A DNA stretch of 56,510 nt, filler included, from Catajapyx aquilonaris (Eukaryota): the NCBI GenBank assembly GCA_000934665.2. It is 3 parts of 3 records of this genome, joined end to end, with 100 filler letters (N's around TTAATTAATTAA, not from the genome) between each part and the next. Parts side by side here need not be neighbours in the genome. Positions count along the whole stretch, not along the records: positions 37,743 to 56,510 come from JYFJ02006616.1; 2 more parts are not named here. The stretch is one strand, 5' to 3'. A model generated the notes under the pieces. It saw only the letters and a list, made by a program, of their open reading frames with translations, ran no database searches and was not told the origin of the DNA. Below are positions 3,763-49,259 of the stretch, piece by piece (position 1 is the first letter of the stretch; each line of letters opens with the position of its first letter). The position numbers and the translations under genes are program-made.

Positions 3763-4636
3763 CAGTGGTTCTCAATCTTTTTCGGGTCGCGACCCCCTTT
3801 TATGATGGTCAAGTAACCTGAGACCCCCCCCCCCTCCCACCTCCCCAAGTGTTAGTAGGCGTTGAAAAAACCTTCCCGATGAAATTTCCTATAATTTTTT
3901 TAAATTAAAAAATAGCAAACAAAATGCACCAGACGTACTACTAGCGAAGCACGAATGCTGCAGACGGCCGAATTCACCAGGGCCTACAATAAGGAGTGGC
4001 CTTCCTGACAGGGTTTATTTAAGGTTTGATGCTTTTATACAGCAATTTTTAATAAAATCAAATTAATCGCACCTTGGTGCGGGATGGAAGTGGGATCCAT
4101 TTCCATCATCGCTCATTCGGTACGGCAGCATCATACGCATATATTGTGCGCGTCGTACTGTACGTACTGTAGGCTACACAATGAATTGATCTAAAACGCA
4201 CTACAGATATTGTATTTCTCCCCATTCCAACGAGTTCTTTCGATAAAAAATTAGGCATTCAATATAATTATTTATCGCCATCACTCAATAAAAATATTGA
4301 AACGAAAAAAATATTAGACTTAGGTAATTTACTGAGAATATGAACACTATACTCAATGAAATTATCCACTCTGCGTTCACTTCCACTAGACCAGTAGTTG
4401 TGGTTCCCTACATTTTTCGGGTCGCGACCCCCTTTTATGATAGTCAAATAACCTGCGACACCCCCCCCCCCCCCCCNTTAGTAGGTGTTGAAAAAAAAAA
4501 AGCTTCTCGATGAAATTTCCCATAAAATTGTTTTGATTTTTTAAAAAATGTAGTAATTTTTAAATATATAACTATTACCGCGGCCACGCGCGACCCCCCG
4601 GAAAAGACTTCGCGACCCCCAGGTTGGGAACCACTG
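3763..4636. mobile_element. Non-autonomous hAT (Charlie/Buster-type) element with an internally repeated left end
   Basis: Termini CAGTGGTTCTCAATCT and AGGTTGGGAACCACTG (16-bp TIR, 2 mismatches). Subterminal GGGTCGCGACCC motifs. Degenerate 8-bp TSD CTAGAGTG/CTATAATG. The left ~150 bp recurs from 4392. Confidence 0.75.

Positions 4637-8464: not shown

Positions 8465-8544
<80 letters not shown>
8465..8544. repeat. (TTA)n microsatellite
   Basis: Perfect trinucleotide run. Confidence 0.95.
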
Positions 8545-9453: not shown

Positions 9454-9458
<5 letters not shown>

Positions 9459-9507
<49 letters not shown>

Positions 9508-18778: not shown

Positions 18779-18878
18779 NNNNNNNNNNNNNNNNNNNNNN
18801 NNNNNNNNNNNNNNNNNNNNNNTTAATTAATTAANNNNNNNNNNNNNNNNNNNNNNNNNNNNNNNNNNNNNNNNNNNN
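18779..18878. other. Synthetic contig linker (N44-TTAATTAATTAA-N44)
   Basis: 100-nt block with a six-frame stop oligo inside N runs; identical to the block at 37643. Confidence 0.95.
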
Positions 18879-23063: not shown

Positions 23064-25553
23064 ATGCCAAGTCATCCTCCGGTCGTGAGTCGTGAAAATT
23101 CCAATGGTGCAATCAGGCGTAGTACTTATCGTACCACCTCTTGGGATAAACATATTGGCTTGGGAAGTTCGGCTGAAAACCCATTGATATCGAGGCAAAA
23201 TTCGGTGGCAAACATCAATAAGAAATCGTCAACCTCATGTCTGCAAACAGTCAAAGACTACTGCTCAACTTCTTCAGTTCATGGAATCAAATTCATTACC
23301 GTCGACAACATTCACATCTTAGAAAGGTAATTGTCACAAATAACCTAATCCTTCTATAACAATGTGTGTCATATTGCTGTCCTCAATTTTCAGAATCATA
23401 TGGTTCGCGGTCTGTGTTGTTTCTTTATCTGCAGCTATACTGCTGATACAACCAGTGTTTAAAAGATATGCCAATAACCAGCTAATGATGGCAGTAGAAT
23501 CAACTAACACTCCCATCTGGGACGTCGACTTTCCGGCAGTAACCATTTGCAATGTTAACAATGTAATGGAGGACTTGTTCCGTAACATCATCAACCAGGA
23601 ACCGTGAAAGTATAAATTATTCTTGTCACTAATTCAATACAATTTCATGTTTTTTTTGTATTCTTAATTCAGGTGGAATAACAACCCTGAAATGGGGAAT
23701 GTGATTAAGCTCCTAACTGGTATCGGCCAAACGAAAATTAACAAGCAGCAGAACGACAATAAAGAAATGGAAGACGTCATCAACAAGAACGTGAACGCGA
23801 TAGAAGGACTAATGAAAGAGGTGATAATATTTCATTATACACATATCATGAGCACATTATGTCAACTACATTCAATTACATGCACTCATCAAGAGTCAAA
23901 GTAGTTGGCATTTGAGTCCCAAACCCCTAAAGAGTCCCAACCCGAAACCTTCCAATACCTACGACAAACAACGTACAAATGCATATGGTCAATTTCAGGT
24001 CACACAGCCTATAGACAGAATGGCGTTATCATGCTATTGGCTAAGTGAGAAACGCAACTGCAGTGATTTATTCGAAAAGAGGCGTACTGATGAAGGCTTC
24101 TGCTGGTCCTTTAACTCCAAGGCAATGAAAGACGCCAACAAAAATCCACAAAGGTCAGGGCAGTATCATTTCACTACAGCACTTATACATACGTTCAATG
24201 TAAGCACGCACCCAATATATACCATTACAATTTACACAATATTGCACAATTATCCGAATTACACAGTATTCACGAATAATTCTCGTTGCAGGATTCAAGA
24301 CGAGTCCATTGAGAGTGTCAATGCGAGTGATGATTCCGGTGACGGATCCGACACCTCGCACGAAGACATGATTGCCAACGAAAATGAAACCTCAAAAATC
24401 CGCAGAGTAAATGGAGCAGGTCCGATGATGGGACTGTCTGTCTTGCTTAACCCTGATTCCAAAAACGCTGCCAATTCCTCATCCTTCTTCACAGGCTTTA
24501 AGGTAATGTTGTGCATTGTGATATGCAAATTGCTTAGCGTGATTTGTTTATGCCATACATAAACCCTCACGTTTCAGGTGCTAATACACGACCCAGACGC
24601 TTTTCCCAGCATGACCAGCAGATCTTTCCTTGTGTCCGCTGGTAGGGAGGTCTTCACAGCGGTCTCTCCGACTGTCGTTTACGGCACAGAAGCAGTCCAG
24701 CAACTCAACAAAAAAGACCGATTTTGCAATTTCAAGTATGAGAAAAAAATGGAGTTTTATAGAACCTACCATTACGATAATTGTCTTCTGGAATGCAAAA
24801 TAAAAGCCATGAAAAAAAAATGCGGCTGCGTCCCATACATATTCTCCGTGATAGGTACGTTAGCCACTCTAAATATGTTGCAGTGTTAATATATGCAAAT
24901 ATCATAACATTATTATTTTAGGAAACGTTTGTAATTACACGGGAATGGTGTGTATAACTAATTACCAGCGTAAGTACCGAATCCATTAATTTTGACATTT
25001 ACTCGTTCATTTATAAGAAGTCACTTGCTTTCTGCAGGATTTTTTTCCTCCGTACAGCCAGACAAATATGTGAAAGGCTTAAATATCAGTGTGAAGTCAA
25101 TGAATCTTTGCAAATGCCGACCCACATGTAACGATGTTAAGTACACGTCAGAAGTAACCGCAGCCGTTTATCCATCCAAACCCGAGGACATCACATCAGT
25201 GTCTGATGAATCAATTGACAAGTAAGCAATGTCCCGCCATCATAATGCTGTGCCTAAACAATGACTGTTTTCAGGAGTGAGCTTGTTCTACTGCGAGTCT
25301 TTTTCAAGGAAATGGCATTCATCACGTACCGTACGGACCTAGTTTACAAATGGACCGATATACTCTGTAAGTAATGCTGAAAGATATGCATCAAATCATG
25401 TAGTAACCTATTAAAATTGCAGCTACATTTGGAGGAGTCGTGAACCTATTCCTCGGATGCAGCTTCATCAGTGTCCTTGAAGTGTTCTATTACTTTGTGA
25501 TAAAACCATCGTTCAGAGCATGTAAGCGCTCCAGATCTGCTCAAGTGCAATAG
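23064..25553 (+). CDS. DEG/ENaC (pickpocket-family) channel subunit, copy 1; 10 exons, 572 aa
   Basis: Exons 23064-23326, 23394-23603, 23673-23820, 23999-24153, 24292-24502, 24578-24854, 24922-24969, 25038-25221, 25275-25366, 25423-25553. All introns GT-AG and the frame is open. Motifs: pre-TM1 SSVHG, FPAVTICN, GFCWSFNS, Cys-rich thumb, TM2 ILSTFGGVVNLFLGCSFISVLE. Start codon inferred. Confidence 0.93.
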
Positions 25554-27262: not shown

Positions 27263-27534
27263 ATGCCAGGGCAAACACACTATAATGGAAGAACACTTAG
27301 TGTCATCAGCTCTAGGGATTTTCGCGTACCATCCTGGGAAAGAGAACCTTCGACGGGCACCAATCCGCTGTTTTCGAGAAAAAATTCAGCAACTGACATT
27401 AAAAGGAGATCGGCAAGGTCATGCATCACAACAGTGAAGGAATACTGCTCAAGTTCTAGCGTCCATGGGGTCAAATATATTGCCCGCGACAATGCACACA
27501 TTTGCGAAAGGTAAGTACTTCGTGCAAAATGTTA

Positions 27535-27623
<89 letters not shown>

Positions 27624-30229
27624 TATCAGGTTACTGTGGTTCGCGTGCTGGATTACGTTCCTGACAGCGGCGTTCATGTTTGTGCAACCTGTTTTTAAGA
27701 GATATGCCAACCACCAGCTAATAACCGCAGTAGAATCAACAAACACTCCCATTTGGAATGTCCCCTTTCCATCAGTTACTATTTGTAATGTTAACAAAGT
27801 CATGGGTGACTTGTACAGGGAGGCGATCAATGAGGCACCGTATGAGTATACTGCACATCAGTTGTATTCTTTGCCATGAATATATTACATTAATACAGGA
27901 TCAAAGTGCATGTTAGGTGAATTTCGATTTCAGATGGAACAATAGCCAGCACATGCCAGCCGTGATGAAGCTCCTAAGTGGTCTTGGGCAAATGAAAGTC
28001 ACCAAAAGTAACGCCGACAGTGCGGCTATGCAGAAATTTTTCAATGAGAATGCCAATTACACAGAACAACTGATGAGAAACGTAAGTGTCAGGCATAAAG
28101 CAGTTTTATTAAGTTTCCTTTTTATTGAAAATGTTCCTCAATGCTTCCATCCTAAGTTATACTTTAAAAACCCCAAATTGCACTCCAAAAGCCAGTTTAA
28201 TAAATCGGCTCTCGTGTTAATTATCTGTTTAAATATTGTGAATAATAATTAAAATAGTAAACACGAATGTGGGCTTCTACATCACTTACCACCAGTAATC
28301 TAAAAATTAATATAATTTAATTTGCCACACTATTTTCGTAGGTCACACAACCGGTAGATAGAATGTTTCTGGTATGCCGATGGCTAAGTGAACAGCAAGA
28401 CTGTAAAACCCTCTTCGAAATACGGCGGACAGATGATGGATTCTGCTGGTCTTTTAATTCCAAGCCAATGAAAGACGCGCAAAAAATTCAGAACAGGTCA
28501 GTATAGCACCTTCAACAACAAAAACTCTGGACAGTATGTCAGTGATAATTAAGCATTTCAAGAAAATGTGGATATTTCCAGCGGTAATTCATTGCTGAAT
28601 GAATTAATCACTGGAAATGTCAACAATGGCGTAGATGACGACGACGCCGACAGTTCAGAAGACGACAAAGAAGAAAATGAAAAAGAGTCATCCAAGATAC
28701 GCCATGTAAATGGGGTCGGGTCCCTGATGGGTTTAACTGTCATGCTCAACCCAGAATCTAATCACCGATCACATTCAACAGCCTCCATGACAGGTTTTAA
28801 GGTACTCGTACAGTATCATGTACACATCAAGAAAGAAAAGTAAGTCAGTTGACTAATATTGAACAAATCCTTAATAGCCCGACTCTCTTGCTTTGTTCAG
28901 CTGACTCACCAGGTTAGACAGAGAAAGTTGGTCATCTGACCTGGGCAGATTAGTCAGACGATTTATCCAATTAACTAAAACCAAAATGTGTACATTGACA
29001 CACTTTTCTTCTTTGCACACGTGAAACAAGTACCTTTTCTTTATTTTTGCCAATAGGTGCTTGTTCAAGACCCGGATGCTTTTCCAAGCATGGCCAGCAG
29101 ATCTTTCCTTGTGACCGCTGGTCGAGAGGTCTTCGCAGCGGTCACTCCGACTCAGACCTACGCCACTCAAGCAGTCAAGGAACTCCCAAAACATAATCGA
29201 TTTTGTTACTTCTCAGACGACAAGAAAATGACATTCTACTCAACCTACAGTTACGACAACTGCATTTTGGAATGCAAAATAAAAGCCATGCAAGAAAAAT
29301 GCAAATGCGTACCCTACATTTATTCGCTTTTCTGTAAGTGTCATTAATGTTATTTGAAAGCATGGTGTGATACATTGTCCAAGTCCTCGTTACATGTGTG
29401 GGGTAAGGGGGAGATATTATGCATTGTTCATGCCACCATCATCACGTTGGCAATGTTCAACAATCAGCGTTGCTTATCTTGACACTGGTATAGCTTCGGG
29501 TACCTCATTGTAGTGAACAGTGCATAACAATATGTATAATATTGTTGTTGCAGATGGCGTAAAACTGTGTGATTACAATGGAATTGCATGCATAAATAGC
29601 TATCTTCGTAAGTGGCATCCTCTCTTTAGTCCATCGCGTAATGATGTTATTAGGTAATACCTTCTGGTTTTCTTTCGACAGGAATGTTTTCTTCCTTCAC
29701 ACCACCGGAGGACGTAAGGGGTTGGAACAGGTCGATAAAGTCCATAGAAAATTGCAAATGCCGACCCACATGCAACGATGTTCGGTACAAATCGGAAGTG
29801 ACCGCTGCTGTTTATCCTACAAAACCGGGTGACATATCGGTTGTCAGGACTGGAATTAATCAGTAAGTTCTGTCTTGCTTCATAACTAAACATGTCAGTC
29901 TTACACGAATCATTTTTGTCCAGGGGTGAGCTAGTTCTACTTCGAGTTTATTTCAAGGATATGGCTTTCACCAAGTATCGCACAGATCTCCTCTACAAAT
30001 GGACTGACATTCTCGGTAAGCATTTGCACAAATTTTATGGAATAATGCTGCGTTAATATGACAATTAAACACAAGTAACATGCGATTTATTCCAGCTGCG
30101 TTTGGTGGGGTAGTAAATCTCTTCATAGGATTCAGTTTCGTCAGCATAATTGAGGTGCTCTATTTCTTTGTTCTACGTCCACTAGTCCGTGCATGCTGCA
30201 AGAAGCAAAAAGACGTCAAAGTCCAATAG
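27263..30229 (+). CDS. DEG/ENaC (pickpocket-family) channel subunit, copy 2; 10 exons, 572 aa
   Basis: Exons 27263-27510, 27630-27839, 27934-28081, 28342-28496, 28582-28801, 29057-29333, 29554-29607, 29682-29862, 29924-30015, 30096-30229. Same intron positions and phases as copy 1. SSVHG, FPSVTICN, GFCWSFNS, TM2 ILAAFGGVVNLFIGFSFVSIIE. Confidence 0.93.
27536..27622. repeat. (TAT)n microsatellite in intron 1 of channel copy 2
   Basis: Perfect run ending 7 nt before the end of the intron (acceptor AG at 27628-27629). Confidence 0.95.
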
Positions 30230-30637: not shown

Positions 30638-30639
30638 AA

Positions 30640-30690
<51 letters not shown>

Positions 30691-30693
30691 ATA
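30638..30693. repeat. (TAAA)n microsatellite, possibly a retroelement tail
   Basis: Perfect tetranucleotide run between channel copies 2 and 3. Confidence 0.9.
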
Positions 30694-31284: not shown

Positions 31285-34070
31285 ATGACAAATAGCACTT
31301 TTCGAAGCCTAAATTGGGAAAGAAATATCGGTATATCAAGTGTGCCTGACAACACTTCCTGTTCGACGCAAGCCACTGCCTGCAATACTCATAAAAAATC
31401 ACCAAGCAGTTGCCTGAACGTAACAAAGGATTACTGTGACAATACTACCATTCATGGAGTGAAGTACATTGGCACAGACGACGTCTTCATCATGGAACGG
31501 TAAACATCACTGTTGTTGTAGTTGTTAATATAACTGCTAGTATTATGTGCTGTTTTTACCCGTAACTCTAGGATACTCTGGCTCGTGTGCTTCATTGCTT
31601 CCTTAACTGGAGCAATACTGTTTGTACGGCCAATTTTGAAGAGATACTCCAACAACCAACTCATGACCACCATACAATCAACTGACACTCCCATCTGGGA
31701 TGTCGCCTTTCCGGCAGTAACCATTTGTAATGTTAACAAAGTCATGAAAAACTTGTACCACAACGCAACCGCACAAGAACCGTGGGAGTACTCCTCTTAT
31801 ACCATCACAAATTATCACAAAGCACAACTCACTGTTTCGCATTTTACTGTACTGCACGCTATGCTACGCATCCGTTTGAGTAATATAACAAAATTAACCT
31901 TTTAAATTCCCAGTTGGAAAAATAGCCCTCATATGGATAAGGTAATGAAGCTTCTTAGTGGCCTTGGTGAAATGAGAGTTACCTCCGGTGGACAAGACGA
32001 GGAAGACATTAAACAATTTTTCGACAAAAATGTGAATGCCACAGATCGCCTGATGCGGGATGTACGTACACATTTCATTGCAATATGCTATTAACTTTCT
32101 GCAATTAAATAATCTGTGGGATACACTGGTAAAGAACGATCGCTAATTGCACATTATTTCACCGTGAAATTAAATTTCGCGAAAGAAATTGTACTGATGG
32201 TTTAAAACAAGGCGTGGTAGTGGGTAGAATGGGATCAAATGTAAGTTTGACATTCGCAAAACATGTTTAAATTGTTTCTCAACATTTCAGGTAGTGCAAC
32301 CAATCGAGTGGATGGCCCTTTCATGTTACTGGATGGGGACAAAATCAGACTGTAGCCAGCTATTTGAATCGCGCCGAACAGATTACGGTTACTGCTGGTC
32401 GTTCAACTCCAAGAAAATGAAGGATAAGCAAGAAATTACGTTAGTATCGTATCAAGGCACAAAATATTATGAAGGGCACATTATTTGTTGGTTAATGGTC
32501 TATATACCTCGTGCGCTGTATGCAGTACAACATACTCGTACCCTTAGAATTTGGCACTCTCGCTCGAAATCTCGGGTCATACTCAATAACTCGAGGTGTA
32601 TACCTTTGGTGTATACTGTACCTTGTTCTGGTTAACGCCAATCTTAATATTTCAGAAATGCTATTCTTGGTATAAACATCACAACTGAAGATTCCGAAGC
32701 ACCAACAGAGGAAGATTTGATCACCGACAAAGAGGAGAGCCTCAATATCCGCAGGGTAAACGGACCGGGTCCTATCCTGGGTTTAACTGTCCTGCTCAGC
32801 CCTGAATCCGAAAATGCAGGTCACTCTACAGCCTACGTCAATGGATTCAAGGTGCACGCAATCTTTCCAGATACACTATTCCATGGTAGTAAGGTAAATA
32901 TGGGTGTCTTACGGAAAGCTTGGCACATTTCAGGTTCTGATACACGACCCCAGCGCTTTCCCGACCATGGCCAGCAGGTCTTTCCTTGTATCCGGTGGTA
33001 GAGAAATCTTCGCATCGGTCACTCCGACAATCACAAGTAGCACTCATTTAGTCCGGCAGATTCCAAAAAATAAGCGATTCTGTTATTTCCAAGATGAGAA
33101 GCACATGACATTATATAAAACCTACAGTTATGATAACTGCATTCTGGAATGCAAAATAAGAACTATGATCAACCACTGCAATTGCGTACCCTACATATAT
33201 TCTATGTTCAGTAAGTGTCATTCCGAGTTTAATTTACACTATTCAAAAAGCATGAATCAAATATTAAATATGTTTCAGGCGGCGTAGACGGCGTGAAAGT
33301 ATGTAATTACAGCGGAATGAAATGTGTGAATGAGCACTTGAGTAAGTATGCACGCTTTAAGACACTAAGCAATTATTATTGTGAATTGAACAAGACTCAG
33401 AAAGCACAAAATGCAAAGTATTTCATTGGGTACACATATCCCTTGATGTGATGTCACAGATCTACAACGACCCCCATCACTCTCTGCTCTTCCTACCAAT
33501 GCTAGAGCATGACATTATCTTTCCTTCATTTTCACAGGAATGTTGTCATCCATAAAACCGGATGTTGAAGTAAAGGGTTTGGAACCAGGAATAATGTCAA
33601 TGGAAAATTGTACCTGTAAACCCAAATGCGATGATCTGCGGTATGAAACGGACATAAGCGAGGCTGTATACAAACTCGACCAAAGAAAATTAGCCAACAT
33701 TACTGATCTGCTAGTCACTAAGTAAGTGCTGTTGTTTTAACCCTACAGCAAGAACATTTTGCCATAATACGTTTATTTATTTAGCCCTTCTGAACTTGTC
33801 TTGCTCCGAGTTTTCTTCAAGGAAATGATGTGCACCACGTATCTCACAGACCTAGTGTACAAATGGACTGATTTGCTCTGTAAGTAGCGACTCATAATGC
33901 ATCTGTTAATGCAGATCATTCTTGACTCTTAAATGCATTTCATTTCAGCTACCTTTGGTGGATTAGTTAACCTCTTCACCGGATTCAGCTTCATCAGTGC
34001 TTGTGAAGTGCTCTATTTTTTCGTCCTCTGTCCACTATTCCGTATATGCATGCGCCCAAAAACCGATTAG
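31285..34070 (+). CDS. DEG/ENaC (pickpocket-family) channel subunit, copy 3; 10 exons, about 552 aa
   Basis: Exons 31285-31499, 31572-31781, 31914-32061, 32291-32439, 32656-32851, 32934-33210, 33279-33341, 33538-33721, 33785-33879, 33949-34070. Frame open. TTIHG, FPAVTICN, GYCWSFNS, TM2 LLSTFGGLVNLFTGFSFISACE. Confidence 0.93.
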
Positions 34071-37642: not shown

Positions 37643-37742
37643 NNNNNNNNNNNNNNNNNNNNNNNNNNNNNNNNNNNNNNNNNNNNTTAATTAATTAANN
37701 NNNNNNNNNNNNNNNNNNNNNNNNNNNNNNNNNNNNNNNNNN
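37643..37742. other. Synthetic contig linker (N44-TTAATTAATTAA-N44)
   Basis: Identical in structure to 18779-18878. Confidence 0.95.
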
Positions 37743-38126: not shown

Positions 38127-38132
38127 TATAAA
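38127..38132 (+). promoter_or_regulatory. TATA box of peptide gene P1
   Basis: TATAAA starting 54 nt upstream of ATG 38181; mirrored in paralogue P2. Confidence 0.6.
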
Positions 38133-38180
38133 ATGTAGCAGGAGTTGGTAACTGGTTCATGACCAATAATAATTGTCGAG

Positions 38181-39360
38181 ATGAAGGTGGCCTCGCTGTT
38201 TATGCTGCTGCTGGCATGCACGTTCGCTCTGGTAAGCTCTGGTTGAGTGGTAAAGGAGCTTTGGAGTCACCTATCTAATGCTTCTTACATTTAGGCTGTG
38301 CCATTGACCGACCATCACAATTTCCAAGGAAATGATGATCAGCAAGTGGAATGCGCTGGTAATATATCATTGTTATACATTTTTAGCGTCTATAGCCGTC
38401 TAAGCACGTGATTGTAGACTGGCAAAATCTTAAACGTTAATTCTGAACAAAGTGAACAAAGACAAAGCAATGTTTTTCAAATTAAGCGTACATGTTGTTT
38501 ATACCGATAATAAGTCCGTAAATTCGTTTGATTATTAATTTTAAAATATTTTACCATTGGTTTATTTTCACAGGTGGAGCCTGCAACCATGATGAGGTGA
38601 GCTCTAAACCTATTTGAAAAATTCTGATAATTGATTATGACCTGTAAAGGGTTGACCTAGCTCTCATTTGAATAACTACACTTTCCTATGTTTTTATTTT
38701 TGCAAAAATATATCAGTTCCTAGGATGATTAGGCCTATTAATATTTGCAACGGTCTCGTGCTTTGTAATCATAATCGTGCAATGTTACAGATATCTGAAC
38801 TGGTGAAGCGAAGCGCTCCAAATTCTGCAGTGGTGACAGCAGGAGGTAAATTAAGATATTACAGTATTCTCGTGTACTCTTCAATTTTGAGTCATTACAC
38901 GCCATGTTGTGCGTATGCTGATGATTTCTGATGAATGTTTTAAAATTTAATAGAATTTTGCTATAGTTGAATGCATTGTCCTTATAAGGTATAAGGAGGC
39001 AATTATTAGAGTCACAGGCGGTCAAGGGTGACTCGTAGAATAGTGACCTCGAAAAGATAATATAATAAAGCAAATAAATACGATTGTCATCATCACACTC
39101 AATCAGATTTGGCTTGAAAATAATGTGACATGGCCGCCTTCTTCTAAACATGATGCGAATTATTTATTTTAGAGCGTGCTGCAGAGGGTGGTAAAGGAAA
39201 AGGAAAGAGCAAGGGAAAGGGGAAGGGGAAGGGGAAAGGTAAGGGGAAAGGTGGAAAAGGTCAAGGTGGAAAAGGACAAGGTGAAGGAGAACAGCAAGAA
39301 CCGCCTACAGCAGTAGATGCCATGCCTGCAGGAGCTCAAGCGAAGGAGAGAAGAAGATAA
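38181..39360 (+). CDS. Secreted Gly/Lys-rich prepropeptide P1; 5 exons, 126 aa, unknown family
   Basis: Exons 38181-38231, 38295-38358, 38574-38596, 38791-38845, 39173-39360 (GT-AG, phases 0,1,0,1). Translation: MKVASLFMLLLACTFALAVPLTDHHNFQGNDDQQVECAGGACNHDEISELVKRSAPNSAVVTAGERAAEGGKGKGKSKGKGKGKGKGKGKGGKGQGGKGQGEGEQQEPPTAVDAMPAGAQAKERRR. AATAAA at 39454-39459. The paralogue has the same exon structure. Confidence 0.82.
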
Positions 39361-39763
39361 GCAACTCGGAATACCAATGTATTAAGTTGTCTTTGCAAAT
39401 GAAGTGACACTTGCATTAACGACAAAAACACTGTAGACTATAGGCTATAGCAAAATAAAGCAAATACAGCTGAAGTAATGGATTGTGTAAGCAACCTGGA
39501 AGGATGTCGAATGAATGGAGGATTATGTCACCTTTCGGTCACACATTTGTTATCAGGGTCAAATAATTAGTCCTGGCTAGGTTTCATGCCGCACGATAAT
39601 AATATTGCAAGCAAACGGACAGGGAAATAAAACAAAGTCCGCTACCGGAAGGCGGGAGATGTTTACAAACTTGGATTATTTTTGTTTGCCAATTTGAGCC
39701 CAAATGCCACGCATGCATGCTACTTCCTCGCAGGTATATGCTTGGATAAAGAGGTTTGAATCC

Positions 39764-39769
39764 TATAAA
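39764..39769 (+). promoter_or_regulatory. TATA box of peptide gene P2
   Basis: TATAAA starting 46 nt upstream of ATG 39810. Confidence 0.6.
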
Positions 39770-39809
39770 TCCTGCTGGTGAGTGGATTTGTCCTGCAAAA
39801 TCTGTCGAG

Positions 39810-40976
39810 ATGAAATTGTTGGCATTTTCGGTGGTGCTTCTGGCATGCCACACTCTGGCGTGGGTAAGTATTTCTTGGTGAGTACGACGTGACAGGCAGG
39901 ATTAAGGATATAATTATATTCCTGATCATTTTATATAGGCTGCTCCAGGAGCCAGGGAAAGTGATGATCGTCCAGTAGATTGTCACGGTAATATAATTAT
40001 GTTGCGGCATGACAAAGGGAGAAGGTGCTATTTGATTGTTTTCCCGATCAGCAACTTTAAAGGGAATCAGTTCAATTTCGTTCAATTTCGTTCAATTTTC
40101 AATATATGCACATTTTTATTCCATTTGAGCTGTTGCTTCTCTTGAAATGGTTTTCTCGGATAAACAACCTGTAACATCTCCCCTTTCACCCATTTTTTTA
40201 CTGTGCATGTGAGCAGTAGTGTACCAATCCGTAGACATGACGAACTAATAATGTAATGATTTTACAAATCTTTCAGATGGAATATGCAGCTATGAGGTGA
40301 GCATTGAAACTCTCCTGTAATGTCGAATTATTTTGAGATTAATATTGTGGCAAACGCGTCCATCCCATAGCTTCCATTTCAACCACCAGCCAGAAATCTG
40401 GCAAAACTTTCACATTTTGCTACATCGTCCACTTACTAGATTCTGTCGAATAAATCAGCGATATTGTTGCAGCGAATATTTTTGTTCATAATATTATGAA
40501 GAAGGATGTATAGCTGTGGAGCTCGATTTTATAATATTTATTTTCGATTTAATTTATCGAGCAGGACTTGTTATAACCCACAAAGTTGTAACTACTCTTG
40601 TAAAAATTCTAATAATTCTTCAGTACCTTGGAGTATAGTAACAGAACGGCCACTTGCAAGTTGCACAACAACTGCTCAAAAACCAATCAATCTCTCAGTT
40701 AATTTTTTTTTTGAACGCGAGAATTTGAAGGCATGAAAACCCAGCAAAGATAATATTGCAAAAAATAGTCACAAATTTGACAAGAATTAATTCCAATTGG
40801 CTTAAATTTATTTGCAATCCCAACAGGGGTCCAGGTTGGTGAAGCGAGAAGCAGCCAAGGGGATGGATGATATGGCTACAGCACCAGGCCCTACCGCAGT
40901 AGGCGGGTCACAAGGTAAATACACTCACATTATTATTTTAACACTAATGGTGCACACCGCACCTGCCTTCAACATC

Positions 40977-41027
<51 letters not shown>

Positions 41028-41239
41028 TCTTTTTAGGAGTCCCACAAGACAGTACGGTGCCTGGAAAGGGGGGAAAGGGCAAGTGGAACAAATGTGGGAA
41101 GGGGAAGGGAGGGAAGATGGGAGGGAAGAAGGGCTGGAAGAAGGGCTGGAAGAAGGGCGGGAATAATGGCGGGAAGAAGGACGGGAAGAAGGGCCAGACA
41201 GGCAGTCCAGAATATGATATCTATGAACTAACCGCCTAG
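39810..41239 (+). CDS. Secreted Gly/Lys-rich prepropeptide P2; 5 exons, 137 aa, paralogue of P1
   Basis: Exons 39810-39863, 39939-39987, 40277-40296, 40827-40914, 41037-41239 (phases 0,1,0,1). Translation: MKLLAFSVVLLACHTLAWAAPGARESDDRPVDCHDGICSYEGSRLVKREAAKGMDDMATAPGPTAVGGSQGVPQDSTVPGKGGKGKWNKCGKGKGGKMGGKKGWKKGWKKGGNNGGKKDGKKGQTGSPEYDIYELTA. Same TGTCGAGATGAA start context as P1. AATAAA at 41350-41355. Confidence 0.82.
40977..41027. repeat. (GAT)n microsatellite in the last intron of P2
   Basis: Perfect run just before the acceptor ending at 41036. Confidence 0.95.
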
Positions 41240-41829
41240 GCCCTATCTAGAGTAAGAAGCAGTATGTTTACTCCAGTTTATGTGGTATTGGGAGAGCCTC
41301 ATATACAGGACGGTGTAGTCACAAGTAGATATTAACATTAGAGCGAGCCAATAAATTATCACATCAGCATCTGAACGGACTGTTCATGTGGACATCATTT
41401 TTCGCAAATGATCTCATTTATTCACCTGCCTGCGGATTGTACTTGCATCCCAAACAAGACGAAATAGAAATACAGCTACATTCAAACTGCCGATTTCCTA
41501 CGTTTTGACGATGAATGGAAAGCTCTCAAGCGCCCCCCACACTTATAGGTCTCCCGAATTATCTTTTTTTTTTTTTTGGAAACATCATTTTCAACAATAG
41601 CTTCCATCTGGGCACGTATCTTACAAAGAGGAAACAATAAACGCCAATGAATGTGCAAACAAAATCACCATTTTGGGAGCAGGTTATTTGTACTTGTTCC
41701 AACACTGCAAAAATATTAGCATAATTCTCACATCAGACGAGCAGGCTTTTTAAAATGAGTAAAGAGGTCCTAGCCTTCACTTTGGAAACTACCTCATAAA
41801 TTCGGCCATATTTTTTGGATGTTTATGTC

Positions 41830-42252
41830 ACGCACCCACATTTTCCACAAAAATAGGATCGACACACGCACCTCTGGCACTAGTCTTAGTTGTTGGTTAT
41901 TTCAATATGTGGACATAACATAATGAATGATATGTCTCCCTTTCTAATTGTTTTCGAGTGTTGCAACAGCTTTTCCCATATTCCTAATAAGCTCTTCGAG
42001 GTACACTTCGTCCTATTTCCTCTCTTGAAATTGAGACCTACACGCCTACACTCATGAAGCAGACGAACAGCATGTGCCACGATGTATGCGGATCACACTC
42101 TTTGTAACTGAACTTCTCGAAAAGGATTGTACTATTTTCCCGTGAAAGTCATAAGCTGTGTCCCTCAACAGAATTGTCTCAAGTGCAGGTGACAAACTGC
42201 TCGTGTTCAACACAACGTGTTCACCCTAATGGCAGAAGAAGCAGACCGACAT
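41830..42252 (-). pseudogene. Deleted relic of a divergent ionotropic receptor (IR-C)
   Basis: ATG at 42252 is fused directly to SVCFFCH*, so the N-terminus is deleted. S1-region homology (KGDISFIMLCPHIEI) is then joined to the S2 segment (plus strand AAAATAGGATCG..CACAC..CCTCTGGCAC, compare 43930-43960), so TM1-TM2 are deleted. Upstream region is homologous to IR-A and IR-B. Confidence 0.85.
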
Positions 42253-43462: not shown

Positions 43463-45409
43463 CTACGGCAAATAGGTCAATTGTTGACCCTCCTCTGATC
43501 CCTGCCTTTTCTTGCAGCATCGAATCGCGTGGCAAATGATTTCCTTCAAGAAGACGACTAGTGACAACGCAGTTCCCACCAGAAGCACGCAAAAAGGCCC
43601 TTGAAACGTCTCTATGGAAAATACTTCCGCGTCATCCACGTCACTGTCTGATGCACTTTGTTCCGCCAGTCTCGAAAGACGCCAGTGCCTTACAAACTTA
43701 TCGAAGCGATCGCTCTTTAAGGCCAGGCCGATGCTGTTGTACACCTGGATCCAAAAGTTGAAGTTGGCGGAATAAACGCTGTCTTTGGAAAAGGCCATTG
43801 AGACTTGGAATGTAGCGTAAGTGTCGTCAGACATGAAGGACGTGATACTCCCGTCACTCGAAGGAAATTTCCCATACATGTAGTATTCCAGAGAATGCTC
43901 ATTGCCCATGCACACTATATTTTTCGAGAAAATAGGATCGGGACACACTTCCTCTGGCACAGGTCGTAGTTTATCTTTAATGGCAAGGGTTCGTTCGTCC
44001 TTGTTTGTATCTCCAGACAACATAAAGTCGTAAAAATATTCAATTATATTTATGCCAAACTCTGAATCAATCAATTCCGTAAATGTCCGAGGAACTCTCT
44101 CCGTTGGAGGGTTAACTAGAAAGTCATACAATTTCGCGACATAACCAGTCCCTGTTATCATTGAAAAGTAAATCCAGAATATTATGGCGATCATAAAGGA
44201 AAGATTCATTCGAGGTTCAACATCTGGACACTGGGCAAGGATTACTCGTGCCAAATACTTACAGCTACCAAGGGGAGTGCGAAATCCACCAGGCTGCCGT
44301 TTGGTTAATAGAAACATGAACACCCCATATAATAATACACAGCATAAAAAGCAAACCCACGGGATTATTTGGTACGGATAAAAAATAATCAAAGGGGTTC
44401 GGATAATGTAGGGTATGCGTGCAAGGAAAGTCATGCGATCTTGAAAATGTGGCGTGATTAAGTCGAAATCAGTTGCGAATACTTGAACTTGCGGGCAGAA
44501 CATCAGGAATGATATATTTCCCTTTCTAACATCTTCTGCTATTGCAACAGCTTTTCCTATATTCTTAAGAGTTTCTCGAAGGTTCACATAGTCTGCTTTC
44601 CACTTGAAATTGAGGGCTTCACCCATGAAGCAGATGGGAAGAACGTTCCACCGCTCATGAGGATGGCATTCTTTGTAACTCACTTTCTTATGATGGATTG
44701 TTCTTACCATTTTCCCATGGAAGTCATACGCCGGGTCCCTCAAGATCATTGCCTCAAGTGACAAAATGCTCGTGTTCAACACAACATCTTCTACAACTGG
44801 CTCACCCTGATTGCAGAAGAAGCAGACTGACGAGATCACTGCGACATCACTGTCTTTGGTGACAATAGCTGCTTTGAACTTGAGAGTCGAAGCTGGCTTC
44901 TGCGACAGGTAACTCTGGTCTGGTTGGTCCCTCATCCAGATCAAGAACTTGTCCTTCGTCTTCTTGACGGCCAGAGATCCTTCCTCCGGATCCAGCATCT
45001 CCTCCATGGCATCATCGTAGTTGTCTCTGCAAACGATGACCAGACTGACCAGGCACTTGTGGTTCCGGGTTGGTAGGAAAGATGAAGGGTCATTGATGGG
45101 ATCACTGGACTCGGAGCAGTCCCACCTGGTCTGCTGGTGGGAGGTGGACTTTGCCAGCAGGACGAGCCTCCATGCCCTGGACATGTTGGACACCATGACC
45201 TGGAGGTGGCCAGGCCAACCCCACCCGAGGTCATGGGTCACGGCCAGAGGACACTCCCTGTCCACCCTCTCGCCTCCCTTCAGCAGGTGCCAAACAGACT
45301 CGGTCACTTGCTCATCCAGCTGGTGATGATGCTTACCATTCACTTGGACACTGCAATGGCCGAAGTGAAATGACACGACCCCAAAGATGATGACCAAGAG
45401 ATTGGACAT
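43463..45409 (-). CDS. Divergent ionotropic receptor (variant iGluR chemoreceptor) IR-A; intronless, 648 aa
   Basis: Single ORF with signal peptide, S1 start DFHGK, TM1 IFYPYQIIPW, pore VILAQ, TM2 ending GYVAKLYDFLVNPP..PRTFTEL (SYTANL equivalent), S2 end FSKDSVYSANFN..GL and last TM FQGPFCVLLVGTALSLVVFLKE. Confidence 0.92.
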   Translation of the reverse strand: MSNLLVIIFGVVSFHFGHCSVQVNGKHHHQLDEQVTESVWHLLKGGERVDRECPLAVTHDLGWGWPGHLQVMVSNMSRAWRLVLLAKSTSHQQTRWDCSESSDPINDPSSFLPTRNHKCLVSLVIVCRDNYDDAMEEMLDPEEGSLAVKKTKDKFLIWMRDQPDQSYLSQKPASTLKFKAAIVTKDSDVAVISSVCFFCNQGEPVVEDVVLNTSILSLEAMILRDPAYDFHGKMVRTIHHKKVSYKECHPHERWNVLPICFMGEALNFKWKADYVNLRETLKNIGKAVAIAEDVRKGNISFLMFCPQVQVFATDFDLITPHFQDRMTFLARIPYIIRTPLIIFYPYQIIPWVCFLCCVLLYGVFMFLLTKRQPGGFRTPLGSCKYLARVILAQCPDVEPRMNLSFMIAIIFWIYFSMITGTGYVAKLYDFLVNPPTERVPRTFTELIDSEFGINIIEYFYDFMLSGDTNKDERTLAIKDKLRPVPEEVCPDPIFSKNIVCMGNEHSLEYYMYGKFPSSDGSITSFMSDDTYATFQVSMAFSKDSVYSANFNFWIQVYNSIGLALKSDRFDKFVRHWRLSRLAEQSASDSDVDDAEVFSIETFQGPFCVLLVGTALSLVVFLKEIICHAIRCCKKRQGSEEGQQLTYLP

Positions 45410-45608
45410 TTTGTTTCACTTGCAGGGTATCTCGACGCTGTTAAGGTCAGACGCAACAAGGATGGTTCTCCTTCTACGGGAATGACAAAACTGTAGAGTC
45501 AAACTAGGCAAAGCTTGTATAGTTGCACTTGCATGGGCGTGAGTCGATAATTCCATCCACTGCTCTGTAATTTTACGTCCTACATGCACCATACCCACAA
45601 ACACCTGC

Positions 45609-47328: not shown

Positions 47329-49259
47329 TCAATGGGCCCCTTTCCTGCAGCGTCGATTCACCTGACATGTGACTTCCTTCAAGAAGGCGAGTAGTGACAA
47401 TGTAGTTCCGACCAGGAGGATGCAAAAAGGTCCTTGAAACTTCTCCGTGGAAAACACTGTCCCACCAATCGCCTCGTTGCCTGATCCATTCAATTCCGCA
47501 AGCCTCGCAAGTCGCCAATGATTTTAAAACTTGTAGAGGCGATCGCCCTTCACTGCTAGACCGATGCTGTTGTACACCTGCACCCAAAAGTTGAAGTTGG
47601 CCGAATAAACGCTGTCTTTGGAGAAGGCCATTGACACGTGGTATGAAGCGAAAGAGTCGTCAGAAACGAAGGTCTTAATTTTCCCGTCACTCGAAGGTAC
47701 ATTCGTGTAATAGTCCAAAGTCCCTGCATTACCCATGCACACTACATTTTCCGCAAAAATTGGCTCGAAGCAGGCTTCTTCTGGCACGGCCCATAGTTTG
47801 TCTGACAACTTAAGGAATTGTTCGTCAATGTCCACTTCTCCTGCTCGAATAAACTCGTAAACATATGATATTATGTTGATGCCAAACTCTGATTCAATTA
47901 ATTCTGGAAGTGTCCGAGGAACTAACTCCTTCGGAGGGTAAACAAGAAAGTAAAACAATTTTGCGGCGTAACCAGTTCCTGTTACCATTGCAAAGTAAAT
48001 CCAGAACATTAAGGCGATCATAAATGACAGATTCATTCCTGTATTATTTCCTGGATACTGGACAAGCATTACTCGTGCCAAATACTGACAGCTTCCAAGA
48101 GCAGTGCGAAATCTGGCCAAGGAATTGCGGCTTGGAAGCTGTCGTTTGGACAGTATAAACAGAAACACTCCATAAATTAGTAACGAACAAAAAAAAAACA
48201 GACCCAAGGGATGATTTGATATGGATAAAATATTATCAATAGGGTTCGGATAGAGTTGGGTTCGCGAGCAAGGAAAGTCACACGATCTGCAAAATGTGGC
48301 GTGATCAAGTCTAAAAGAGCGTTGGCTATTTCAATGTGTGGACAGAACATAATGAATGATATCTTTCCCTTTCTAACTTCCTCGAGAGTTGCAACAGCTT
48401 TGCCCATATTCCTCACGCTTTCCTTCAGGTCCGCATAGTCCGCTTTCCACTTGAAATTGAGAGCTTCACCCATGAAGCAGATGAGGAGAAGGCTCCACCA
48501 TGCATGCGGATGGCACATTTTGTAACTGAACTCATCGTTATTAACAACTTTTCTTAACATTTTCCCATGGAAGTCATACGCCGGGTCCCTCAAGATCATT
48601 GCCTCAAGTGACAAAATGCTCGTGTTCAACACAACATCTTCTACAACTGGTTCACCCTGATTGCAGAAGAAGCAGACTGACGAGATCACTGCGACATCAC
48701 TGTCTTTGGTGACGATACCTGCTTTGAACTTGAGAGTCGAAGCTGGCTTTTGCGACAGGTAACTCCGGTCCGGTTGGTCCCTGATCCAGATTAAGAACTT
48801 GTCCTCCGCCTTCTTCGCTTGAAAAGATCCTTTCTCCGGATCCAGCATCTCCTCCATGGCATCCGGGTAGTTCTGTTGGCAAAGGGTTACCAGACTGACC
48901 AGACACTTGTGGTTCCGGGTTGGTTGGAAAGGTGAAGGGTCATTGATGGGATTACTGGACTCGGTGCAGTCCCACCTGGTCTGCTGATGGGAGGCGGACT
49001 TTTCCAGCAGGACGGGCCTCCATTCCCTGGACATGTTGGACACCATGACATGGAGGTGGCCAGGCCAACCCCACCCGAGGTCATGGGTCACGGCCAGAGG
49101 ACACTCCCTGTCCACCCTCTCCCCTCCCTTCAGCAGGTGCCAAACAGACTCGGTCACTTGCTCATCCAGCTGGTGGTGATGTTTTCTGATCACATGGACA
49201 CTGCAATGAGACAAGTGAAAGGACACGACCCCAAAGATGATGACCGAGAGATGGGACAT
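47329..49259 (-). pseudogene. Divergent ionotropic receptor IR-B, disrupted paralogue of IR-A
   Basis: ATG at 49259 (MSHLSVIIFG), colinear with IR-A throughout. Frameshift in the A10 run at 48189-48198 (A8 restores WVCFFCSLLIYG). In-frame TAA at 47524-47526 (KF*NHWRL vs KFVRHWRL). The frame continues through the last TM to TGA at 47329-47331. Confidence 0.8.

Follow-up and report, generated by a model that had tools for sequence, protein, structure and literature searches.

A stretch of 56,510 nucleotides from the genome of Catajapyx aquilonaris (assembly GCA_000934665.2; hereafter the window) contains, in the part taken from record JYFJ02006616.1, a tandem pair of small five-exon genes on the + strand. 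We refer to the upstream and downstream members of this pair as gene 1 and gene 2. Judged by sequence comparison, the two are old paralogues that lie head to tail and are intact, and they are very probably real protein-coding genes. Each is predicted to encode a secreted precursor in which a signal peptide, a pro-piece with a C-x-x-G-x-C motif and an L-V-K-R site precede a tract rich in glycine and lysine. The reading that we prefer, and hold tentatively, is that these are convertase-processed secreted polycations that bind polyanionic surfaces, either in a host-defence-like role or as effectors of secretion or of an extracellular matrix. An initial annotation of the window had described the pair as hidden micro-exon genes for an unrecognised family of secreted Gly/Lys-rich cationic prepropeptides.

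Gene structure and relationship of the two genes

Both gene models were rebuilt from the window by coordinates. Gene 1 has 381 nt of coding sequence, specifying 126 amino acids (aa), and gene 2 has 414 nt, specifying 137 aa; both frames are free of stops. Their exons and flanking signals are as follows.

38127-38133, + strand: gene 1 TATA-like box, 54 nt upstream of the ATG
38174-38185, + strand: gene 1 start context, TGTCGAG-ATG-AA
38181-38231, + strand: gene 1 exon 1, 51 nt, residues 1-17, most of the signal peptide; next intron phase 0
38295-38358, + strand: gene 1 exon 2, 64 nt, end of the signal peptide, acidic pro-piece and first loop Cys; next intron phase 1
38574-38596, + strand: gene 1 micro-exon 3, 23 nt, second half of the C-x-x-G-x-C loop; next intron phase 0
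38791-38845, + strand: gene 1 exon 4, 55 nt, LVKR codons at 38800-38811 and start of the post-KR linker; next intron phase 1
39173-39360, + strand: gene 1 exon 5, 188 nt including the stop, (GK)n tract, then a Glu/Pro/Ala tail ending K-E-R-R-R
39454-39459, + strand: gene 1 AATAAA, 94 nt after the stop
39764-39769, + strand: gene 2 TATA-like box, 46 nt upstream of the ATG
39803-39814, + strand: gene 2 start context, TGTCGAG-ATG-AA
39810-39863, + strand: gene 2 exon 1, 54 nt, residues 1-18, signal peptide; next intron phase 0
39939-39987, + strand: gene 2 exon 2, 49 nt, pro-piece and first loop Cys; next intron phase 1
40277-40296, + strand: gene 2 micro-exon 3, 20 nt, second half of the loop; next intron phase 0
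40827-40914, + strand: gene 2 exon 4, 88 nt, LVKR codons at 40836-40847 and acidic linker; next intron phase 1
40977-41027, + strand: perfect (ATG)17 microsatellite occupying much of gene 2 intron 4 (122 nt) and stopping 9 nt short of the acceptor
41037-41239, + strand: gene 2 exon 5, 203 nt including the stop, GGKK/GWKK tract, then a short acidic tail
41350-41355, + strand: gene 2 AATAAA, 111 nt after the stop

The initial annotation had proposed two complete five-exon genes with intron phases 0,1,0,1, and the rebuilt models agree with it in full. All eight introns are of the GT-AG type with T-rich acceptor tracts, and the donors are pairwise alike between gene 1 and gene 2 (gtaag / gtaata / gtgagc / gtaaat). 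Introns fall in the same columns of the protein alignment, apart from intron 4, whose position is shifted by about one residue. Premature stops arose whenever an internal exon was skipped (6 of 6 tests) or an intron was retained (8 of 8 tests); skipping of micro-exon 3 placed the stop at residue 41 in gene 1 and at residue 49 in gene 2.

The two genes had also been said to share a start context. The 12-nt sequence TGTCGAGATGAA has exactly two matches in the window, one at each start codon, and none of 100 shuffles reached two. As read from the sequence, each ATG is preceded by an in-frame stop, and no other ATG intervenes. The TATA boxes and AATAAA signals of the initial annotation are present, but they count for less. 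TATAAA occurs 47 times in the window where 53 copies are expected (29 of the 47 on the + strand, about one per 2 kb), and because the motif is not enriched, only the position of the boxes carries information. With 128 copies in the window, AATAAA is weak evidence for either polyadenylation signal.

The (ATG)17 microsatellite, if read through, would encode poly-Asp in the frame of exon 5, and poly-Met followed by a stop in the frame of exon 4. Variation in its length could affect the splicing of gene 2.

DNA comparison of gene 1 with gene 2 gave three high-scoring segment pairs (HSPs) with an expect value (E) below 0.01. One covers the 5' untranslated region and exon 1, another the 3' end of exon 2 plus the adjoining donor, and the third exon 5. 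A colinear HSP over micro-exon 3 and its splice sites, with 68% identity over 41 nt, is not significant alone (E 1.7), and two intronic HSPs (E 0.087), one of them non-colinear, were at chance level. Counted segment by segment and per shorter segment, identical positions made up 62-67% of exons, 2-16% of introns and 3-14% of flanks. A tblastn search of the window with both spliced proteins matched only their own exons, the next best match having an E of 0.39, and revealed no third copy there.

At the protein level, blastp with SEG masking and composition correction aligned residues 1-55 of gene 1 with residues 1-50 of gene 2 at 41% identity (E 4.6e-8). The Smith-Waterman score of the pro-region was 54, compared with 18.5 +/- 4.05 in shuffles, and 0 of 5000 shuffles reached it. 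For the other segments the real score was reached in 55 of 5000 shuffles (signal peptide), 249 of 5000 (exon 5) and 1703 of 5000 (post-KR linker). These figures bear out the earlier proposal of a conserved scaffold with a divergent cargo.

Predicted products and their proposed role

Heuristics supported the signal peptides that had been annotated, and gave them 18 residues in gene 1 and 19 in gene 2. In both proteins the signal region starts with M-K, has a hydrophobic core of about 15 residues and closes with the small-x-small end A-x-A, and 9-residue hydropathy windows near the N-terminus peak at 2.8 and 3.0. Each pro-piece contains C-x-x-G-x-C, which is split by the phase-1 intron 2; gene 1 and gene 2 have different residues at four of the six loop positions. 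The L-V-K-R that follows is identical in both (residues 50-53 and 45-48). These two motifs, the cationic tracts and the N-termini after K-R were as first described. The segments that make up the rest of the precursors differ in length and charge (isoelectric point, pI) as follows.

Pro-piece to LVKR: gene 1, 35 residues, net -5, pI 4.6; gene 2, 29 residues, net -1, pI 5.5
Linker: gene 1, net -1; gene 2, net -3
Gly/Lys tract: gene 1, 31 residues, +12, 52% Gly, 39% Lys; gene 2, 44 residues, +16, 39% Gly, 39% Lys
Tail: gene 1, net -1, ending K-E-R-R-R; gene 2, net -3

Asp and Glu account for 7 of 35 and 6 of 29 pro-piece residues (20-21%). The acidic pro-region claimed for both genes is evident in gene 1 and marginal in gene 2, and the acidic segment claimed after the tract is found in gene 2, while the tail of gene 1 is nearly neutral and ends in basic residues. 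Although the sequences following K-R cannot be aligned, the product has a net charge of +10 in both genes. Gly and Lys together constitute 77-90% of the tracts, and neither tract has a Tyr. That of gene 2 also holds three Trp and one unpaired Cys; with Trp beside Lys it looks more like a peptide of the membrane interface. A single-sequence AlphaFold2 model of gene 2 exon 5 had a predicted local distance difference test score (pLDDT) of 58.7, a predicted template modelling score (pTM) of 0.14 and no secondary structure, which is consistent with an intrinsically disordered cargo, although such a model is weak evidence.

The tracts are encoded by repeats, and these are the only purine-rich arrays in the window.

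39190-39283, + strand: degenerate 6/12/15/18-nt purine arrays encoding the GK tract of gene 1, 74-95% matches
41104-41194, + strand: 12-nt purine-rich array encoding the cationic tract of gene 2, 86% matches

Match levels within the tract arrays (74-95%) compare with 84-100% in the other arrays of the window and 93-100% in those of simple sequence. Gly or Lys occupies 28 of 31 codons in the gene 1 tract (GGT 6, GGA 6, GGG 4; AAA 6, AAG 6) and 34 of 44 in that of gene 2 (GGG 8, GGC 5, GGA 4; AAG 16, AAA 1). Synonymous codons are thus evenly mixed in gene 1, and the codon preference of gene 2 is a different one. The two tracts are alike mainly in composition. Degenerate arrays with mixed synonymous codons, which set the tracts apart from the pure non-coding microsatellites of the window, fit selection for amino-acid composition and independent expansion, rather than young slippage.

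We searched several collections with the cargo exons. For gene 1 exon 5, none of the 7999 candidates sharing most words in a word-index protein collection reached an E of 0.01. An exhaustive phmmer search with gene 2 exon 5 against 1,835,955,588 (1.84 billion) representative proteins returned 0 matches at E 0.001, and the Atlas gave nothing usable for this exon. Gene 2 exon 5 had 0 matches in the PDB and 0 families in Pfam at E up to 1. Gene 1 exon 5 had three low-complexity matches in the PDB, namely two ribosomal protein S10 tails and a poly-GR peptide, and three in Pfam, also of low complexity and all well below their cut-offs (the highest score was 17 bits, where 35 were required). The word-index collection was blank as well for a neighbouring 650-aa receptor ORF (open reading frame; 6157 candidates) and for an exon of a neighbouring DEG/ENaC channel gene (231 candidates). 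Since the collections were blank for these channel genes too, and since the cargo queries are short and of low complexity, the blanks are weak evidence for novelty. In the literature on Gly/Lys-rich secreted families we found no secreted GK-repeat family, only nuclear GK-rich linkers and general reviews. The description of the family as unrecognised is therefore not contradicted, though weakly tested; it is plausible, on searches made with the cargo exons alone, that the pair represents a new family of a familiar kind, that of secreted, convertase-processed cationic proproteins.

The preferred reading would work as follows. The precursor would enter the endoplasmic reticulum by means of its 18-19-residue signal peptide, and the two Cys of C-x-x-G-x-C would close a six-residue disulfide ring in the N-terminal pro-piece. 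A subtilisin-like proprotein convertase would cut after L-V-K-R late in the secretory pathway, freeing a disordered polycation of 73 residues (gene 1) or 89 residues (gene 2) with a net charge of +10. Its targets would be polyanionic surfaces such as microbial envelopes, nucleic acids, sulfated or acidic glycans, or other polyanions of a matrix. Signal, loop and KR would together form a conserved module for sorting and processing, while the cargo would evolve through expansion and decay of short coding repeats, with selection holding its Gly/Lys composition. Expression, secretion, disulfide, cleavage and target are all inferred here from sequence.

Several observations weigh against this reading. 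The gene 1 tract is without any hydrophobic residue, which is atypical for membrane-active peptides, and its action would have to be by charge alone. The consensus for furin is R-x-K/R-R, with an Arg at P4. L-V-K-R has no P4 Arg and suits a neuroendocrine-type dibasic site more than the precursors typical of insect immune peptides. An enzyme of the PC1/3 or PC2 type, or a relaxed one of the furin type, would be needed. The pro-piece of gene 2 is almost neutral, and masking of charge is therefore no general explanation for the pro-piece. A weak test for kappaB-like motifs, over the 438 nt before the ATG of gene 1 and the 350 nt before that of gene 2, found none; a single GATA site lies upstream of gene 2 and is too weak for use either way. 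The ratio of nonsynonymous to synonymous substitution (dN/dS), by the Nei-Gojobori method, speaks for constraint on the proteins: it was 0.22 over 112 aligned codons and 0.38 over the 48 at the N-terminal end, with dS saturated (above 1). The first value is limited, however, by an alignment that is arbitrary in the low-complexity half, and mismatches at the three positions of those 48 codons numbered 17, 18 and 22, which is a small excess at the third. Finally, the pro-piece is the best-conserved part of both proteins, and it could be the functional product rather than the tract.

A more specific form of the preferred reading, which is possible but rather doubtful, makes the pair part of an undescribed, lineage-restricted arthropod family. 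Here the looped pro-piece would deliver a (Gly-Lys)n polycation nearly free of hydrophobic residues, which would serve in defence by charge only, or as an agent that binds or coacervates polyanions, and which would be unlike amphipathic antimicrobial peptides. Turnover of the coding repeats, with selection acting on composition, would keep renewing the cargo.

The products may instead be structural or adhesive proteins that are never cleaved or lose only the signal peptide, although we consider this unlikely. The Gly/Lys block would then be a polycationic module, able to be cross-linked or to coacervate, in a silk-like or mucous matrix, a cement, an egg coat or the surface of the cuticle, and the acidic flanks would act as intramolecular charge blocks. 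An acidic, strongly basic, acidic order of blocks, extremely low complexity and predicted disorder all fit such a role; Lys is a substrate for enzymatic cross-linking, the tract of gene 2 has its unpaired Cys, and basic Gly/Lys-rich proteins occur in marine cements. The mature proteins would, however, be very small, at about 11-12 kDa, and their tracts have no Tyr and no chitin-binding or cuticle motif. A strictly conserved LVKR immediately before the divergent part also argues for processing.

We give a low probability to a hormone- or neuropeptide-like precursor, in which the N-terminal disulfide-looped peptide would be the active product and the Gly/Lys part a mere associated spacer. It draws on the same conservation that troubles the polycation reading: similarity beyond composition is confined to the stretch from the signal peptide to KR (0 of 5000 shuffles, against 1703 for the linker and 249 for exon 5). 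The conserved peptide stands directly behind the signal peptide and is ended by dibasic K-R, and a bare K-R without P4 Arg is the classic neuroendocrine convertase site. The order of signal, peptide, dibasic site and divergent associated peptide is also that of precursors of the adipokinetic hormone (AKH) and corazonin type. Yet L-V, and not an amidation Gly, stands before K-R; the loop differs at four of its six positions; and the conserved part is only about 41% identical. A spacer would not be expected to keep a tract of +12 or +16 and a net charge of +10 past synonymous saturation, and we recognised no known peptide family.

It is very improbable that the pair is duplicated non-coding or decayed DNA in which purine repeats and chance splice-like motifs give an open five-piece reading: GGNAAR-type repeats are indeed stop-free in several frames (ORFs of 100 and 81 aa lie opposite gene 2 exon 5), TATAAA is not enriched and AATAAA is abundant (neither strong alone), and the cargo exons found no homologue in the collections searched, but similarity is confined to the predicted exons with unalignable introns and flanks, all eight splice-site pairs, the phases and the donor hexamers are kept despite synonymous saturation, both frames are intact and are broken by every alternative splicing pattern tested, and the 12-nt start context occurs nowhere in the window but at the two ATGs.

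If expressed, the pair would represent a small family of secreted polycations whose short exons and low complexity keep them out of standard ORF tracks and perhaps hide them from gene finders. The two genes offer a clean case of a conserved module of signal, pro-piece and cleavage site joined to a cargo that keeps only its composition, which bears on how secreted effectors diversify. The near-pure Gly/Lys cargo, purest in gene 1, is suited to tests of charge-only binding to microbial or matrix polyanions. Wider significance is limited, as arthropod genomes commonly hold orphan genes for secreted peptides.

Neighbouring genes and assembly of the window

The window is nuclear DNA of an animal. 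Its GC content ranges from 0.36 to 0.48 per 2 kb, and Rfam and tRNA scans of the whole window gave 0 and 0 matches. We compared 150 stop-to-stop ORFs of at least 75 aa with Pfam and counted an E of 0.001 or less as a match. Ten of the 150 matched, nine of them to the amiloride-sensitive sodium channel family (ASC). The genes recognised around the pair are these.

About 23344-25222, 27460-29344 and 31534-33284, + strand: three tandem multi-exon DEG/ENaC (pickpocket-like) genes, in which nine ORFs match Pfam ASC
41938-42249, - strand: receptor-like fragment of 104 residues, 43% identity, about 600 nt downstream of gene 2
43466-45415, - strand: ligand-gated channel by Pfam, ionotropic-receptor-like, an intact single-ORF gene of 650 aa
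47341-49265, - strand: tandem paralogue of the 650-aa receptor, its halves 79% and 61% identical, with a frame change near 48192

The only PDB relatives of a DEG/ENaC exon at E of 0.001 or less were two chains of entry 9pzn, and the best of them is named Pickpocket 26 (E 3e-12). In the Atlas the 650-aa receptor falls among clusters of ionotropic receptors (scores 0.97-0.98), and the taxa known for these clusters belong mostly to Arthropoda. These neighbours agree with the arthropod setting that the initial annotation assumed. A frameshifted pseudogene or a short intron could account for the frame change near 48192 in the receptor paralogue, and so could an error in sequencing. Two minus-strand ORFs that overlap the region of the pair, one of 141 aa (38738-39163) and one of 123 aa (39720-40091), were considered as genes and set aside; they had no Pfam match.

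The blocks at 18779-18878 and 37643-37742 are identical, each consisting of 44 N, TTAATTAATTAA and a further 44 N, and the flanks of the two are unrelated. The 12-mer TTAATTAATTAA places stops in all six frames. Such all-frame-stop 12-mers are typical of linkers used for joining contigs, and the window is probably three contigs joined. Gene order across the joins, including the position of the DEG/ENaC cluster beside the gene pair, may for this reason not be real. The gene pair and the receptor genes lie on one contig (37743-56510), and scaffolding alone ties them to the DEG/ENaC cluster. Between 34000 and 37640 the sequence is richer in GC (0.45-0.47) and has several open frames of 100-209 aa on both strands, ending at the contig join; none of these frames matched Pfam. 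Perfect AT-rich microsatellites occur at 8465-8544 (TTA)27, 9455-9507 (TAA)18, 27536-27622 (ATT)29 and 30638-30693 (AATA)14, of which (ATT)29 is located within the region of the second DEG/ENaC gene. Single N bases, as ambiguous calls, stand at 4477, 22449, 51937 and 54681 in otherwise continuous sequence.

Comparison with known precursors and repeat proteins

The Gly-rich antimicrobial proteins of arthropods (attacin, gloverin, diptericin, acanthoscurrin, ctenidin, armadillidin) are secreted, often cationic and often made from a pro-form. They carry aromatic or His residues and are not known to have alternating Gly-Lys. The pair also differs from those of these families that have Pfam models, in that neither exon 5, the only part scanned for this comparison, scored above any Pfam cut-off. 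Adhesive proteins of the sandcastle worm and of the mussel foot have basic Gly/Lys repeats that are rich in Tyr (as dihydroxyphenylalanine, DOPA); unlike such polycationic adhesive and cement proteins, the tracts described here have no Tyr. Alternating Gly-Lys runs are found too in the GK-rich linkers of YY1 and DNMT1, but these are nuclear, have no signal peptide and belong to an unrelated context. Hydra arminins, which come from a different phylum, are like the pair in layout: within one small secreted precursor the N-terminal part is anionic and the C-terminal part strongly cationic.

The name micro-exon gene, which the initial annotation had used, does not carry over in the sense in which it is used for schistosomes. 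Micro-exon genes (MEGs) of schistosomes consist mostly of many short symmetric exons of 3-81 bp (10.1101/2023.06.21.545858). The pair resembles them in having a very short internal exon and, by prediction, secreted products. Compared with that description, each of our genes has one micro-exon, of 23 or 20 nt, which is not a multiple of three, is flanked by phases 1 and 0, and cannot be skipped without breaking the frame.

The closest parallels in layout are the precursors of skin peptides in frogs and of cupiennins in spiders. In frog skin, proprotein convertases cut the precursors into acidic spacers and bioactive peptides (PMC13444074). In cupiennin precursors, cationic linear peptides come after an anionic propeptide, and precursors of this type hold several such peptides parted by anionic linkers; the propeptides are more than one-third Asp/Glu, have a pI of 3.85-4.33 and carry PQM/iPQM motifs (PMC7889660). 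Measured against this description, the pro-pieces of the pair contain 20-21% Asp/Glu, have pI values of 4.6 and 5.5, and are followed by one cationic tract each. Membership of the cupiennin type was accordingly rejected on propeptide acidity and on the multi-peptide architecture. The pair also departs from both kinds of precursor in its pro-pieces, which would bear a disulfide loop and end in L-V-K-R, and in a cargo of Gly/Lys repeats for which AlphaFold2 predicted no amphipathic helix. What the pair has in common with the frog skin and cupiennin precursors is a likeness of layout: a signal, a pro-piece, a basic site and a cationic, unstructured product, with the signal and pro part conserved and the cargo divergent.

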